Positions 255 to 5,830 of a stretch of DNA of 5,830 nt are shown here, one piece after another. This stretch comes from a virus, in IMG/VR virus record IMGVR_UViG_3300045988_031704; one strand, 5' to 3'. The translations under genes and the position numbers were made by a program. The first letter of the stretch is position 1. Each line of letters opens with the position of its first letter. The notes under the pieces were generated by a model. It saw nothing but the letters and a program-made list of their open reading frames with translations. It was not told the origin of the DNA and did not search any database.

Positions 255-284
255 ATTATACTACTTGTCAATAGGTTTTTTCAA
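255..284 (-). promoter_or_regulatory. Candidate sigma70 promoter P1: TTGAAA (284..279) - 18 nt - TATAAT (260..255), reading toward the peptidase gene.
   Basis: Perfect -10 hexamer and a 5/6 match for the -35. The predicted transcription start near 248 gives a ~90-nt leader to ATG 158. Confidence 0.45.
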
Positions 285-489
285 TGATCTTGCTGTTTTG
301 TAATATATTCGTAACCTTTTTTTGCAACTCGGTTTTGCTCCTTTGTTTTGATGGCGCTTTAGCGCCTTGCCGTGCGTAGCGTATGCGGAGCTCGGCTAAT
401 CCTTTCCTTTTTAGCGCTGTGCGCGTTTTCAACACTTTCAACACTTTCAACAGGTTTTCCACAAAATGTTGCACAATACTTTTCGTCAT
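268..489 (-). CDS. Doubtful 73-aa ORF encoding a very basic protein (...KTRTALKRKGLAELRIRYARQGAKAPSKQRSKTELQKK...). It could be a J/ORF8-like DNA-binding protein. Its N-terminus is encoded by the iteron repeats (LKVLKVLK).
   Basis: ATG 489 has no convincing SD (GAAAG only). The first third of the ORF is the tandem 9-mer array, and the ORF ends inside the P1 promoter. Small Arg/Lys-rich DNA-packaging proteins are known in Microviridae. It may equally be a non-coding iteron region. Confidence 0.25.
   Translation of the reverse strand: MTKSIVQHFVENLLKVLKVLKTRTALKRKGLAELRIRYARQGAKAPSKQRSKTELQKKVTNILQNSKIIEKTY
353..366. repeat. 14-bp perfect palindrome GGCGCTTTAGCGCC. The same arms GGCGCT/AGCGCC recur at 640-645/664-669.
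   Basis: Direct reading. Confidence 0.6.
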
Positions 490-719: not shown

Positions 720-738
720 GTAAAGATATATTTACTTG

Positions 739-756
739 ATAGACTGAATAGACTGA
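739..756. repeat. Tandem 9-mer ATAGACTGA x2. The flanking 11-mer TTACTTGATAG (732-742) recurs in the loop of the 780-811 hairpin (791-801).
   Basis: Direct reading: 739-747 and 748-756 are identical, and the 11-mer at 732-742 equals 791-801. Confidence 0.7.
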
Positions 757-779
757 TACATGGAGTCTTTAACGATAAT

Positions 780-811
780 AGCCCAGTACCTTACTTGATA
801 GGTACTGGGCT
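780..811 (-). terminator. Perfect 12-bp stem / 8-nt loop hairpin (agcccagtacct - tacttgat - aggtactgggct) 20 nt downstream of the rep stop. A candidate operon terminator, or a structural element of the replication origin.
   Basis: 780-791 is the exact reverse complement of 800-811. In mRNA sense the hairpin is followed by the moderately U-rich AUUAUCGUUAAAG. Confidence 0.55.
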
Positions 812-823
812 AGGTGACACCAC

Positions 824-840
824 GACACTTTTAAAGTGTC
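824..840. promoter_or_regulatory. 17-nt perfect palindrome gacacttt-t-aaagtgtc overlapping the rep (VP4) stop codon.
   Basis: 824-831 is the reverse complement of 833-840, and the rep stop TAA is at 833..831. Confidence 0.4.
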
Positions 841-1850
841 CCTCTCTTCTTCAGCTGCTTCTTTATTACTCTCTCTTTCGTTTTGCACTGTTCTGCAAAG
901 TCTGTGTTTTCGTACTTTAGTCGGTTTTCTGCGATCACTGCTGCTTGTCTGTTTTGTTTAATTCGCCACAATCTTTGTGGGTTTTCAGCTTCCATCATTT
1001 TTTCATAATAGCGTGGAATTTGTGCGCGTTTGCCGTTTGTGCATTGGATATACCCTTGCTTCCAGATTTTCGCTTTGTGTTCTTGATAGTAGCGATCTCC
1101 TAGGCCTGGTTTAAGGCTCATACATGCAAAAGGTTTTTGCTGTCCTAGATCGTAGTATACGTTTGCTTTTTGACCGTCAATTTCGTACATTTTTTTCGTG
1201 ACGTATCCCGCAACATATCTATAAGTCTCCGGTGCTGCTTGTGCTATCTGTATTTGACCCATGCCCCATAGGTCTTCAAGCCATTTACTTGTGAAATATC
1301 CGTTGTGTTGTATCTTGTACAGGTGCTTTAGATCCGTTGGTCGCCATCCATACAGTATCATATGATAATGCGGCCTTGCTGTCTGTTCTCCGTATTCTCC
1401 CGCCACAAAATAGCGTAATTTGCCCCTGTAAGCCTTTCTGAGGCGTTTTATGAGTTTTTGAACGTCAGTATATAGCAATGTTTGGACGCTTTCAGGGCGC
1501 TTCTCTCCCGGCTTCCAGACGTATTGTACTTTTCGCATGATTTCGCCTGTGTTTACTATCATGCCCGGTACATGATCATCATCATAAGTTAATGTGATAA
1601 ACCAAACTTCCTCTCTTGGATAGTCTCGTGCTTCTAATTCTATTCGTGTTGTCCAGTCCTCCCTCTGTCTGATTCTGCATCCGATACACTGCCCGCATGG
1701 TATCAACATGACATCTTTTCTATACATCAAATCTTCATATTTGAGCTGTTTCCCGCATATTTCAGAAAAGCGGGAGAGTGAATACACCCTCCCGCTAATG
1801 CTTTTATCGTTCGGGTTGTACAGCCTTATTAATGGCTTGTAGCAACTCAT
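831..1850 (-). CDS. VP4 replication initiation protein (rolling-circle Rep of Microviridae), 339 aa.
   Basis: Rolling-circle motifs are present: motif I FITLTY, motif II PHYHMILYG (HxH), motif III YRYVAGYVTKKM (catalytic Y...K). There is an N-terminal Cys cluster CGQCIGC. ATG 1850 overlaps the VP2 stop. Confidence 0.93.
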   Translation of the reverse strand: MSCYKPLIRLYNPNDKSISGRVYSLSRFSEICGKQLKYEDLMYRKDVMLIPCGQCIGCRIRQREDWTTRIELEARDYPREEVWFITLTYDDDHVPGMIVNTGEIMRKVQYVWKPGEKRPESVQTLLYTDVQKLIKRLRKAYRGKLRYFVAGEYGEQTARPHYHMILYGWRPTDLKHLYKIQHNGYFTSKWLEDLWGMGQIQIAQAAPETYRYVAGYVTKKMYEIDGQKANVYYDLGQQKPFACMSLKPGLGDRYYQEHKAKIWKQGYIQCTNGKRAQIPRYYEKMMEAENPQRLWRIKQNRQAAVIAENRLKYENTDFAEQCKTKERVIKKQLKKRGTL

Positions 1851-2710
1851 TTCAAATAATCACCCGGCTTTCGCTTTTCTCCGTAGCTTCCTGTTTTGTC
1901 TTGTGGTTTTATGCTTCTACTTTGTTCTGTGCCTTTTTCCGCCTTTGCTGTTGCATCCGTAATGGCCTTGTTTGTGTTGTTTCCTACTTCTGTAAGTGCC
2001 TTTTGCAGTCCGTATGGTGTCATGTGTGTTGTACTGAGCATTTGCTGCCAGCTTTGCGCAGCATTGTACCAGTCACTTGTACTCCAACTTGAGCTTGAGT
2101 ATGCATTCGGTACAAATCCACCGCTTCTGCTTACCCCTAGCGCGCTGCTGCTTGCAAGTCCCATGCTCGCACCGCTGATTGTTCCTGCTGATCCTCCCGG
2201 CGTGCTTGCTCCACCGTTTGAAAAAGCCAAGATTGGGTTAAGTCCTGCTTTTTTCATATCTTCAACTGCACGCTGGTATGCTGTGCTTGACATGTGTTCT
2301 TGCCATTCACGGTTTGCTAGTGCTTCTGCACTGTTGTAGTTCATTGCTACGCTGTTTTCAATGTGGTTGTATACGCCTTGCATGATTGCTTGTAAGGTGT
2401 TGTAACCCATCTGTTTAAGCATACTCTGACTGTTGTATTTACCTTGCATGGCTGCCTCTTGCCCTTGGTATGCGTATGCTTGCTTTAGCCAGTCGTTTAC
2501 TTGTTGAACGTTTGTGCCTGATTGGCTTCCGCTTTCTGAGTGCCCGCCGCCCTGGCTTATACTTCCGCCCTGGCTTTGGCTGTTACCTTCTTGTCCGTAT
2601 CCGCCAAATGCTCCGGCAATGTTTTTTGCTGCTCCGGCGAATGTTCCGATTGTATTTGCTACGTTTCCTGCTACGTTTAGTGCTGTTAAGAATCCTGATA
2701 ACGCTCCCAT
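1847..2710 (-). CDS. VP2 minor capsid / DNA pilot protein, 287 aa, with Gly/Ser/Gln-rich low-complexity segments.
   Basis: Contains the conserved gokushovirus VP2 core ...SSTAYQRAVEDMKKAGLNPILAF (the AYQRAV-DMK-AGLNP-LA motif). Its low-complexity composition and position between VP1 and VP4 are typical. The stop overlaps the VP4 start (ATGA at 1847-1850). Confidence 0.85.
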   Translation of the reverse strand: MGALSGFLTALNVAGNVANTIGTFAGAAKNIAGAFGGYGQEGNSQSQGGSISQGGGHSESGSQSGTNVQQVNDWLKQAYAYQGQEAAMQGKYNSQSMLKQMGYNTLQAIMQGVYNHIENSVAMNYNSAEALANREWQEHMSSTAYQRAVEDMKKAGLNPILAFSNGGASTPGGSAGTISGASMGLASSSALGVSRSGGFVPNAYSSSSWSTSDWYNAAQSWQQMLSTTHMTPYGLQKALTEVGNNTNKAITDATAKAEKGTEQSRSIKPQDKTGSYGEKRKPGDYLK

Positions 2711-2748: not shown

Positions 2749-4422
2749 TTACAGTTTGTACAGGCCCGGCACACTGTACAGCGGCATCCGCCTTGTGGTT
2801 TTGTTTGCTACGCGGATTGCTCCGAAAAATTGGGGTTCATTTTGCACGATGAGCGTGCGCGCAATTTCGATTTTTCCTTCTTCCATCCAGTCCTGTGACA
2901 GCGTTGGTACGTTTGAATAGTTGTCAGCATAATGCCAGAAGTCCAGCGTTCCTGTTGCGTTGCTTCTCATGAGGCCAGATACCCGGTTTGGCTTCATTCT
3001 GTAGTCTGCCCATGCTTCTTGATACCCGAAGGTTTCTTCATCTGTTGCATTGCCGGTTAACATGATTTCTTTCTTTTTGACAGGCTGCTCGCCTATGTTT
3101 GCAAACTGCGGTACGTAGTAGTCAAGTCTGTCACTTCTGCTCCAGAAGCGTTCAAGTCCTTGCTGATAGCTGCGATTGTGTCGTACACAACATACACCGA
3201 TCACAAAACCGTGCTCTTCAAACGATTTGGCAAAACTGCTTTCATTGATTGGTGTTACTGACATTGCACCAGTTTCACCAATAGGCGTGTCATCTTGGCT
3301 CTGCTGTCCGCTGGTCTGCACGATTTGGTTAATGTTTACATGGTATCTGCCGCCGCCGAGGTATTCCGGCACCTGTACGGTTTTATCACTGATAACCACG
3401 TCCCATAGTGCTTGTACCTGTTCGCGGTAACGAGTGCCGCCGCGTGCCAGTGCCTCATAGTACTGCTGCACTGCTACGGCCTTTCGTAAGTCGTTGATGG
3501 TTGCTGCTGCTACACTGCTAAGGTCTGCACCTAGGTATACTACATTATGTGTCGTGTCAGTATCGTCTCCGATGGCTAAGTATGCTGATCCGGTGTTTCC
3601 ATCTTCCGCGATTGCATACAGTCTGTCCTTGACGTTGCTCGGGTTTGTGCTTCCGTCAAAAAAGCTGTTTGCATATAGTGGTGCTTTTTCGTTAAATTTA
3701 TCGTTTGTGTATCCGGAAATTCTTGCATTGCCTTGCATTGGCAGCGTAACTTCCGGCCCGCGCTGAGGCTGCGGCAGACAGCTTGTGAAGTAGTCATGGA
3801 ACTTGTTTACCGGCAACAGATTTCCGCCTTTGTACGCGTTGTTGTCTGCTTCTTGCACCCAAGTTTCATTTCCAAATTCGTACAACACGTTGCTATCGTC
3901 TGTTTTTAGCACTGCTTCGTTATTTACGTTTTCGTCTCTGAAAAATTCATTCCAGATTTTTACGTACGCTCTCACGGGCAGTGCGTTAATCGTAAACGAT
4001 TTTTTGATCTTGGTTGGTACTCCCATATAGTCTAGTATGGATCTTTCGTCTGGTTTTGGTTTGCTATCCGTTCCGTTGATTACGATTTTTGGCGTTGCGT
4101 ATTCTTTTTTTGGCATCCATGGTGTTGCTTCTACTTCTCCCATGAAGTGCTTAAAGTTGTCCCACAGAATTCTATTAGGACAGTAGAAGTAGTAGAAGTC
4201 AATGAATGCATCATCCATTACCGGGTACTTCGGTGTGCTCATGCGGATAATAGCTGAAGTATTCACGCTGAAGGTATCGCCCGGTAATACCTCGTCAACA
4301 TAAAATGGAATCAGCTTGCCAGAATCGAATGTTGTTAAGATCGTCTGGTCTCGGTTAAACCGCGTCCGGCTTGCTTTCATTTCCGGGATTTCATTAAAGT
4401 GTCTTTCATTGTTTCTATTCAC
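2749..4422 (-). CDS. Major capsid protein VP1 (Microviridae F-protein family), 557 aa from GTG 4422, or 543 aa if ATG 4380 is used.
   Basis: The N-terminal region ...MKASRTRFNRDQTILTTFDSGKLIPFYVDEVLPGDTF is the canonical gokushovirus VP1 start (RxRF...TTFDxGxLIPxxVDEVLPGDTF). The size is typical of Gokushovirinae VP1. GTG 4422 overlaps the upstream stop (GTGA) with AGGAGG 7 nt upstream. The first in-frame ATG is at 4380. Confidence 0.95.
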   Translation of the reverse strand: MNRNNERHFNEIPEMKASRTRFNRDQTILTTFDSGKLIPFYVDEVLPGDTFSVNTSAIIRMSTPKYPVMDDAFIDFYYFYCPNRILWDNFKHFMGEVEATPWMPKKEYATPKIVINGTDSKPKPDERSILDYMGVPTKIKKSFTINALPVRAYVKIWNEFFRDENVNNEAVLKTDDSNVLYEFGNETWVQEADNNAYKGGNLLPVNKFHDYFTSCLPQPQRGPEVTLPMQGNARISGYTNDKFNEKAPLYANSFFDGSTNPSNVKDRLYAIAEDGNTGSAYLAIGDDTDTTHNVVYLGADLSSVAAATINDLRKAVAVQQYYEALARGGTRYREQVQALWDVVISDKTVQVPEYLGGGRYHVNINQIVQTSGQQSQDDTPIGETGAMSVTPINESSFAKSFEEHGFVIGVCCVRHNRSYQQGLERFWSRSDRLDYYVPQFANIGEQPVKKKEIMLTGNATDEETFGYQEAWADYRMKPNRVSGLMRSNATGTLDFWHYADNYSNVPTLSQDWMEEGKIEIARTLIVQNEPQFFGAIRVANKTTRRMPLYSVPGLYKL

Positions 4423-4817
4423 TTTTCCTCCTCCTTTGTTTCAGGTTCTGCCGCTGGTTTTTCTGCTGCCTTTTTTTGCAGCTCCTCTAGTTTCATGGCG
4501 TTTACCTGTGCGGTCGCCACCATGCGGTGATACTCATGGATGTTTTGCGGGAATTCCGTAATATCCGTGTATGTACCGTTTAATGCTCCTTCTGACAGGC
4601 TATTTAGAAACTGCGGGTCAAAACTTGCTTTTCGGACAATGTTTTTGATATCACATTCATCCGCATAGCTTTCAATCTCCTGTTGGATATCGATTGGTGC
4701 AGTTTCTTGTAGTGTTTCTTCTCCTTTTTCGTCCTTCGTCCAAACGTACTGTTTTCGAAGTTTTTCTCCTGATTTAGAAAAGAAGGGCTCTCGCCCTTCT
4801 TCGTATCGTTTATTCAT
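4419..4817 (-). CDS. Acidic 132-aa protein, a candidate internal scaffolding protein (VP3-like) of Microviridae.
   Basis: SD GGGAGGG lies 8 nt upstream of ATG 4817. The protein is highly acidic with a C-terminal KKAAEKPAAEPETKEEEK tail, and sits immediately upstream of and overlapping VP1, as VP3 does in gokushoviruses. The assignment rests on size, charge and synteny rather than a recognised motif. Confidence 0.5.
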   Translation of the reverse strand: MNKRYEEGREPFFSKSGEKLRKQYVWTKDEKGEETLQETAPIDIQQEIESYADECDIKNIVRKASFDPQFLNSLSEGALNGTYTDITEFPQNIHEYHRMVATAQVNAMKLEELQKKAAEKPAAEPETKEEEK

Positions 4818-5049
4818 GCGGTTTGCCCTCCCATACCTTCTCCTTGCCGTTCGTGAACGTGCCTAGCTCGTCTTCAAACACTGCCAGCTTATAGCCGGTG
4901 TAGTCGCCGGGCCCCTGCCCAACAAACGTTTTTTCATCCTTCGCCATTACGTTGCACATACGTGCAAAGGTTGCACTATTCTTGCTCTCGCCTACCCATG
5001 CATAGCACTTTGCTACGTCATCCCATAGGCCAAAATATTCATGCTTCAT
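4810..5049 (-). CDS. Hypothetical protein of 79 aa (82 aa if GTG 5058 is used). It is a candidate VP5-like protein by position alone, immediately upstream of the VP3-like gene as in gokushovirus gene order.
   Basis: ORF MKHEYFGLWDDVAKCYAWVGESKNSATFARMCNVMAKDEKTFVGQGPGDYTGYKLAVFEDELGTFTNGKEKVWEGKPHE. Its stop overlaps the next gene's start (ATGAATAA at 4810-4817). A purine-rich AAAGGAAAGTGGA lies upstream. I do not recognise any sequence-level homology. Confidence 0.4.
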   Translation of the reverse strand: MKHEYFGLWDDVAKCYAWVGESKNSATFARMCNVMAKDEKTFVGQGPGDYTGYKLAVFEDELGTFTNGKEKVWEGKPHE

Positions 5050-5147
5050 GATATCCACTTTCCTTTCTTTTACAGCCGGATGCCGCCGCGCATAGGCTTT
5101 TGACTGAGGTTGATGGTTTTGGTTTTTCGTGCGGTTACGTTGAACAC

Positions 5148-5543: not shown

Positions 5544-5830
5544 TTACATCCCCTTTCTGTATTTTTTGGTGCGTGTGTCGATGTGTACCCACGTATTATA
5601 CACGATTATGCCGCATTCATCCGGAATTATTTTGTTCAGTTTGTTGGCGATTTCTTTTGCGGTCATGCCATTAACCCGGATATCTGCTGCCATTCCTCGC
5701 ATATGGTATGAGTACTTTGCACCGCCTACTGCTTTATTCCTTGTTGGTGTCCGGTATCCGCTGTTGATGATTACAGGCTTTCCAACATGGTTTCTGAGTA
5801 CGTCTAGGATAGATACCAGGTAACTATCTA
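5544..5830 (-). CDS. 3' portion of the same Peptidase_M15_3 gene. It carries the zinc-ligand motifs, and its stop TAA is at 5546..5544. Positions 5776-5830 duplicate 1-55.
   Basis: Minus-strand translation reads ...VIINSGYRTPTRNKAVGGAKYSYHMRGMAADIRVNGMTAKEIANKLNKIIPDECGIIVYNTWVHIDTRTKKYRKGM*. The SGYR...N..VGG...S.H..G.AADI ... VHID signature matches the H-x6-D ... H zinc site of the M15 (VanY-type) family. The full protein would be about 123-129 aa. Confidence 0.85.
   Translation of the reverse strand, partial: DSYLVSILDVLRNHVGKPVIINSGYRTPTRNKAVGGAKYSYHMRGMAADIRVNGMTAKEIANKLNKIIPDECGIIVYNTWVHIDTRTKKYRKGM
5776..5830. repeat. Second copy of the 55-nt terminal redundancy (circular junction).
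   Basis: Identical to 1-55. Confidence 0.9.

Follow-up and report, generated by a model that had tools for sequence, protein, structure and literature searches.

Where does rolling-circle replication begin in a gokushovirus whose genes all lie on one strand, and which of its two strands ends up in the capsid? The window, by which we mean the whole stretch of DNA analysed (5,830 nucleotides, IMG/VR record IMGVR_UViG_3300045988_031704), carries just behind its Rep gene a hairpin that a sequence-only reading had put forward as a rolling-circle origin or terminator. The loop of this hairpin resembles the phiX174 nick site, but on the strand complementary to the mRNAs, for which reason that reading allowed that the resemblance might be coincidental. 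Indeed, Microviridae are described as positive-sense. We found no described gokushovirus origin, stem-loop or nick site in the searchable literature, which leaves out older subscription papers on Chp2, SpV4 or phiMH2K that may mention hairpins.

Genome organisation

The window is a complete circular gokushovirus genome with a unit of 5775 nt: a 55-nt terminal direct repeat (bases 1-55 equal 5776-5830) shows that the contig is a closed circle, and megablast places its nearest kin among human and pig gut gokushoviruses. Every credible gene lies on the minus strand, and the stretch at about 141-830 is non-coding:

831-1850, minus strand: VP4/Rep (Pfam PF23343 REP_ORF2-G2P, E 1.1e-17)
1847-2710, minus strand: VP2
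2749-4422, minus strand: VP1 (Phage_F, E 1e-136)
4419-4817, minus strand: VP3 scaffold
4810-5058, minus strand: VP5
140 down to 5544, minus strand: M15 peptidase, spanning the circle junction (Pfam PF08291, E 1e-22)
824-840: small palindrome GACACTTTTAAAGTGTC containing the VP4 stop codon (831-833, minus strand), kept in relatives as GACACTnTAAnnGTGTC

VP4 is a Rep of the rolling-circle type, with the HUH motif HYH and the two-tyrosine motif YVAGY; the HUH and YxxxY columns are invariant when VP4 is aligned to the Reps of Chp2 and phiMH2K (alignment A1).

A perfect hairpin next to partial repeats of its own core

The features of the hairpin and its surroundings are as follows:

773-827, plus strand: complete origin-like element, hairpin and 3' box, as delimited by covariance model R1 (described below)
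779-791, plus strand: 5' arm of the stem, TAGCCCAGTACCT, perfect inverted repeat
792-799, plus strand: loop TACTTGAT, with the predicted VP4 nick G797^A798 placed by homology
800-812, plus strand: 3' arm of the stem, AGGTACTGGGCTA, perfect inverted repeat
813-821, plus strand: GGTGACACC box, candidate Rep recognition sequence 3' of the predicted nick
732-742, plus strand: second copy of the 11-mer TTACTTGATAG, exact repeat
739-747 and 748-756, plus strand: two tandem ATAGACTGA 9-mers

The perfect hairpin originally reported behind the Rep gene is there, with a stem of 13 bp (779-791/800-812) rather than 12. Alone, it folds as single-stranded DNA at about -13 kcal/mol on either strand, and its 131-nt surroundings are much more stable than shuffled sequences (z-scores of -5.8 and -6.7 on the two strands), none of 200 shuffles being as good. 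Both repeats noted beside it are also real: the 11-mer of the loop (791-801) recurs exactly at 732-742, a spacing of 59, and the 9-mers stand in tandem at 739-756, resembling the junction of loop and 3' arm, GATAGGTACTG. The octamer ACTTGATA occurs at two places only in the window, both on the plus strand, against 0.16 expected, a count of two being reached by 4 of 200 shuffles. Its copy at 793-800 agrees at 8/8 positions with phiX174 4300-4307, so that the claimed identity with the octamer around the annotated rep_origin at 4306 holds, as does the observation that the motif (plus strand) is complementary to the mRNAs (all credible genes minus). An Rfam scan of the whole window returned nothing relevant, its sole match lying elsewhere at a chance-level E of 0.71.

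Conservation within the VP4 clade

How much of this arrangement is kept by close relatives? Our clade set comprises 80 IMG/VR contigs picked by VP4 similarity alone (89-94% amino-acid identity). The hairpin lies directly 3' of the VP4 stop codon in all 78 scorable relatives, and the loop, whose conservation the sequence-only reading had proposed as a check, is invariant in every one of them, together with the adjoining arm (CAGTACCTATCAAGTA in VP4 sense). Changes in the stem are compensatory: one pair is seen as C-G, A-T or T-A, and others pass from C-G to G-C or from A-T to G-C.

Homology among clade relatives frequently ends at the hairpin, beyond which lies a mosaic of exchangeable non-coding modules, the second 11-mer and the 9-mers being part of one such module. 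Of 70 distinct relatives, 11 carry the second 11-mer exactly, 33 carry a variant and 26 lack it, so that it is not required; the variant copies mostly read ...TATTTGATAG, usually with A replacing the nick-site G. Both ATAGACTGA units are present in 27 of these 70, and the whole repeat block is absent in L015, L024, L029, L065, L069, L072, L076 and L077. We considered whether the second 11-mer and the 9-mers could be essential iterons and rejected the idea, as they are missing or degenerate in most relatives. Rather, they resemble a partial copy of loop and 3' arm that is decaying, the 11-mer at 732-742 likely being a partial duplication of the origin core, or pseudo-origin; both are dispensable, clade-specific and outside the conserved element.

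An element shared across gokushoviruses

Beyond the clade, Chp2 has on its coding strand a 14-bp hairpin whose stem sequence is unrelated to that of the window, whose loop includes TACTTGAT, and which is followed by GCTAGGTGA, as in the window. We sampled 80 diverse gokushoviruses, with VP4s 37-49% identical to that of Chp2 (one Chp2-like contig, 89%) and, among those compared, about 32% identical to that of the window. Nearly all 80 share the consensus (T)AGCACAGTTAC - yTACTTGAT - GTAACTGTGCT(A), then GGTGACACC, with one hairpin each.

Alignment A2 holds 51 distinct elements from other gokushoviruses, none of them of the window's clade. Here, 11 of the 12 stem pairs change on both sides (matched by 0 of 500 shuffles), and in the 3' box TGA-A is invariant and the remaining positions are at least 70-90% conserved; A2 was chosen with a CTTGAT pattern, which by itself accounts for part of the invariance of CTTGAT inside it. 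From A2 we built a covariance model, R1, with 54 positions. In the window it matches 773-827 (plus strand) along all of its positions (model 1-54 of 54, 44.4 bits, E 8.5e-10), the only significant match and thus a single copy in the clade; in Chp2 it finds 2901-2955 (E 6e-8). One strong match was obtained in 79 of the 80 diverse genomes, the last one having the hairpin by inspection, and in 69 further genomes R1 scored 62 at E <1e-4 and 5 more at a looser threshold. The gut GenBank genomes closest to the clade were all positive (6/6), as were 53 of 60 relatives of one of them, while phiMH2K gave a weak match only. Taken together, a single copy per genome was detected in all but a few of the roughly 215 genomes sampled.

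Alignment A3 collects 95 distinct elements detected by the model; in it, the loop core is ACTTGAT in about 80%, ACTAGAT in 15 and CTTGTT in a few, the last carried by phiMH2K and the L393 group; the dominant 3' flank is GGTGACACC or ACTGACACC. Since ACTTGAT reaches about 80% in a set detected by the model, its conservation is real and not an artefact of selection. To judge from the sequences, the ACTAGAT class may be a variant of Rep specificity. In both A2 and A3, the 3' arm and the box that follows form the most conserved side of the element, and the loop and 3' box are constant in Chlamydia and E. coli phages and in gut, freshwater and marine contigs.

By BLAST, gokushovirus prophages of E. 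coli carry the element in sense orientation between the VP3(-like) and capsid genes, as on the strain E9 chromosome (L408, 5001-5043), with matches in 7 of 5426 complete E. coli genomes. These prophages offer a culturable system for testing the origin. Prophage relatives of the clade's own VP4, of the kind that XerCD/dif-type integration would leave, numbered none in 185,579 species-representative genomes.

Some sequences lie at the edges of this family. SpV4 (L189) has at about 1637-1675 on its coding strand AACTTGATA, 9/9 identical to phiX174, then TAGGTGAT; AACTTGATA sits at the stem/loop junction of a small hairpin without an R1 match, and the site is probably a divergent member of the element. 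Many sense-oriented loci (for example L206, L208, L209 and L237) have GTCACC about 30 nt upstream of the hairpin, complementary to the downstream GGTGAC box and with a G+C hairpin in between, so that a larger three-way structure may surround the origin in these loci; the window is without it. An exact 16-mer scan of viral contigs also gave five matches unaccompanied by any VP4 relative, four of these in larger phage contigs; none of the five had a hairpin, and they were set aside as chance.

Comparison with known replication origins

A close characterised counterpart is the viral-strand origin of phiX174 (CAACTTG^ATATTAATAAC..., rep_origin 4306), with which the window shares an identical core, ACTTGAT(A), a cognate Rep of the same family (HUH and two tyrosines), and a conserved sequence 3' of the nick, comparable to the key and recognition arrangement of phiX174. 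The annotated nick G4305^A4306 corresponds to the predicted G797^A798. However, phiX174 has its site within gene A, on the coding (virion) strand, and no hairpin loop presents it; in the window the site is intergenic, is presented in the loop of a 13-bp hairpin, and belongs to the strand opposite the genes. The bases further upstream of the octamer also differ (TT instead of CA), and the GGTGACACC box stands where phiX174 has the rest of its 30-bp origin, the 18-mer CAACTTGATATTAATAAC being unmatched at up to 3 mismatches on either strand of the window. Against the gokushovirus-wide element (R1; Chp2, L408), the window's copy has the same stem-loop geometry, loop core, GGTGACACC box and single occurrence, but is inverted, lies downstream of VP4, has an extra base between loop and 3' arm, and is accompanied by the clade-specific partial duplications.

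Other rolling-circle replicons provide further parallels. Double-strand origins of pC194/pUB110-type plasmids are nicked at CTTG^ATA, the same heptamer under the same Rep superfamily logic, but belong to plasmids, which use another Rep subfamily and are not packaged. In circoviruses, geminiviruses and nanoviruses, an HUH Rep nicks in the nonanucleotide loop of a conserved hairpin with short direct repeats, or iterons, alongside. There, however, the loop is of the type TAGTATTAC rather than TACTTGAT, and the Rep is unrelated to VP4 and has a helicase domain, whereas the repeats of the window are dispensable; the CRESS nonanucleotide (T/n)A(G/T)TATTAC is absent from the window's hairpin loop. 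Within the Microviridae, Olo Ndela et al. (PMC9865509) describe conserved hairpins in reekeekee- and roodoodoo-microviruses which, going by that description, resemble the present one in being intergenic with an invariant loop and compensatory stem changes. That description reports no link to a Rep nick motif; it tentatively suggests negative-strand initiation and leaves the function open.

The element as a candidate viral-strand origin

What, then, does the element do? It is present once per genome, its loop and 3' flank are constant while its stem merely keeps pairing, and the loop is the phiX174 cleavage site; from this combination we put the probability that 773-827 on the plus strand is the VP4 rolling-circle (viral-strand) origin at roughly three in four. 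The origin half of the earlier proposal is thereby strengthened by the R1 match, the stem compensation, the single copy and the presence throughout the family, and the terminator half survives at most as an additional local role. Coincidence no longer describes the phiX174 match, which belongs to a homologous element common to gokushoviruses and usually found on the coding strand.

One competing possibility is that the hairpin is a complementary-strand origin, folding in the packaged single-stranded DNA to recruit host primase, primosome or RNA polymerase, as do the phiX174 n' site, the G4 complementary-strand origin and plasmid sso, with the resemblance to a nick site being incidental. A hairpin stable on either strand would suit such a role, and the similar hairpins of other microvirus clades have been proposed for negative-strand initiation (PMC9865509). 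Yet the loop and box are constant across Chlamydia, E. coli, gut and aquatic phages, whereas host priming signals vary, so that recognition by a viral Rep fits better than recognition by diverse host primases. The invariant core is, moreover, the nick site of the homologous phiX174 Rep, and other candidate priming structures exist elsewhere in the window's non-coding region. We consider this possibility improbable.

Orientation of the element and the packaged strand

About 190 of the sampled genomes have the element on the coding strand, which agrees with the positive-sense packaging accepted for phiX174, Chp2 and SpV4. In the window, it lies antisense, on the plus strand opposite the minus-strand genes, and directly downstream of VP4, whereas in most genomes it is upstream. 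The inversion is not unique to this clade: four other lineages, with 14 genomes between them, show it too (the L196 group; L329/L309/L326; L294/L340; L393/L394/L406). In such inverted viruses, nicking of the element would displace the antisense strand, which would then be the one packaged.

Could strand composition betray which strand is packaged? Whole-genome A/T skew was discarded as a polarity test, being too noisy (phiMH2K, for instance, gives +0.29), and was replaced by the skew (A-T)/(A+T) at four-fold degenerate sites in coding sense, with gut-matched controls. At these sites the window has A 51% and T 12%, and phiX174 T 52% and A 12%; the two are mirror images, and the motif-bearing strand of the window (T 51%, A 12%) has the same composition as the virion strand of phiX174. 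Outside the clade, the six gut genomes nearest to it all have a sense element, with T 43-66% and A 12-14% (skew -0.53 to -0.68). Skew was bimodal in 60 further genomes, most from the human-gut dataset 3300045988: 57 fell between -0.49 and -0.82, the other three between +0.62 and +0.72. For these three we predicted an inverted element from the skew, and their only R1 matches are antisense, as predicted; those negative-skew genomes that were re-searched with R1 alongside them were all sense. In the sampled gut genomes, the sign of the skew thus tracks the orientation of the element without exception.

Composition asymmetry follows the origin, not the direction of transcription, as would be expected from a mutation bias acting on the strand that spends time single-stranded. 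In the clade, the neutral-site composition is inverted together with the element, which lends no support to the coincidence that the antisense position had been taken to hint at. By the same token, the link between skew and orientation would fit a complementary-strand origin too, whose role is likewise strand-specific.

The rule is not without exceptions in environmental genomes. Nine of about 136 sense-oriented ones have a skew of +0.33 to +0.50 (L293, L295, L296, L301, L303, L304, L308, L288 and L292), most of them from metagenomes 3300030243 and 3300030412, and the inverted pair L294/L340 gives +0.22 and -0.39. The sense-oriented L292 and L288 share their high skew with an inverted sister clade, and no second elements were found in the rule-breaking genomes. 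It is speculation on our part that recent flips explain these exceptions.

On balance, element and composition incline us to the view that the window's clade packages antisense DNA, a polarity that contradicts the textbook description of Microviridae as positive-sense. With similar, qualified confidence, we posit that the element marks the packaged strand across the Gokushovirinae, that its orientation has flipped at least five times, and that this clade, which is abundant in the human gut, and the four other inverted lineages are negative-sense. If so, replication forks in the inverted lineages would run head-on into transcription, and the T-richness at neutral sites that is typical of ssDNA phage virion strands would fall on the antisense strand.

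Could packaging have remained positive-sense all the same? The inverted hairpin would then be a relic or a regulatory Rep-binding site, with a coding-strand origin elsewhere, such as the block at 605-637, which reads TATATAACTTGTTGTAGTAGTAG on the coding strand (minus, 637-605). No other non-coding sequence of the clade is as well conserved as this block (identity is 91-97% for most relatives and 88% for a few, even between non-homologous flanks). Its coding strand contains AACTTG, and the loop of the weak phiMH2K match has ACTTGTTGTA in common with it. However, R1 finds no second element in the window, and the block has neither hairpin nor GGTGACACC box. It is also inverted with its surroundings relative to VP4 in L132, L100, L117 and L082, where the hairpin is not, and a strand-specific origin would not tolerate inversion. 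We rejected it as a sense-strand origin for lack of an R1 match and for this inversion in some relatives. Nor does the coding strand of the four other inverted lineages hold any ACTTG[AT]T, and hence no substitute site of that form, and neutral-site composition tracks the orientation of the hairpin. An origin elsewhere on the coding strand is accordingly doubtful, a shade more so than the complementary-strand role.

Least likely of the three alternatives is that the hairpin is merely the intrinsic terminator of a long minus-strand transcript ending with VP4. A terminator scan does flag the minus strand (13-bp stem, 7 G-C pairs, tail TTATCGTTAA) 18 nt past the VP4 stop codon; that strand also has promoter-like sites for the gene block, at 284-255 and 167-139, and many relatives have tails such as GGGCTTTTGTCGTC. 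But termination needs neither an invariant loop nor an invariant flank, several relatives have a tail that is not rich in T (e.g. GGCTAACCCCTC, GGCTAGGTGTC), and about 190 other genomes have the element upstream of VP4, in the opposite orientation and without a T run. These last two points leave termination as an added local role only, and the hairpin may also help to terminate this transcript.

Proposed mechanism

Returning to the origin reading, the element's homology, conservation, covariation, single occurrence and orientation were observed, as was a composition asymmetry following that orientation. From the homology of VP4 with phiX174 protein A we infer both a nick at G797^A798 and the following scheme. 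VP4, as a two-tyrosine HUH Rep, would recognise the replicative form (RF) at the 3' arm and the GGTGACACC box, while supercoiling would extrude the 13-bp inverted repeat and expose TACTTGAT as single-stranded DNA. VP4 would then cut the plus strand at G797^A798 and remain on the 5' end, and a host polymerase would extend the 3'-OH and displace the plus strand. After one round, VP4 would cut the regenerated site and seal the displaced strand into a circle, which would be fed into procapsids. The predicted packaged strand is thus the plus strand of the window, reading TTACTTGATAGG.

Gokushoviruses are the dominant ssDNA phages of gut and aquatic viromes, and an element that occurs once per genome and can be detected by a model gives them an annotation landmark and a natural zero coordinate; the predicted nick site is, in addition, a directly testable substrate for VP4. 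The inverted orientation and mirrored neutral-site composition suggest that polarity is not fixed in the Microviridae, which, if so, bears on strand-specific virome library protocols, on mutation models for ssDNA viruses, and on how easily a rolling-circle replicon swaps its packaged strand.

Other features of the non-coding region

Several further features share the non-coding region with the hairpin. A block of about 210 nt (427-637) is in the opposite orientation, relative to VP4 and the hairpin, in L132, L100, L117 and L082. Its boundaries fall in CGCGC-rich stretches, and it contains seven exact TTTCAACA repeats (0.39 expected), two copies of TTTTCCACA (the DnaA-box pattern TTWTNCACA), a small hairpin, CGTCATTTTGACG, and the conserved CTACTACTACTACAACAAGTTATATATTATT. 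The inversion could be evolutionary or programmed, and one idea is that the block acts in DnaA-dependent priming. A basic ORF of 73 amino acids (268-489, minus strand), without a Pfam hit, overlaps the repeat block; it is unlikely to be a gene, as it extends across the right-hand edge of the segment whose orientation is reversed in some relatives.

At 676-720 lies a G+C-rich alternating purine-pyrimidine palindrome of the CGCGTGCGCGCG type, with 21-nt arms that are 86% complementary, prone to forming a cruciform or Z-DNA; most relatives have a comparable stretch of different exact sequence in its place. The hairpin at 641-669, GGCGCTTGTGAGCTTGCGAACTATAGCGCC, is found in a subset of relatives only, others having different G+C hairpins in the same region, such as AAAGGGGTTGACTTAAAAGTCAACCCCTT, which points to a modular non-coding region. 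Finally, one contig, L141 (IMGVR_UViG_3300045988_007630, 10.9 kb), has two VP4 genes, 94% and 30% identical to that of the window, and is either a chimeric assembly or two joined microvirus genomes.
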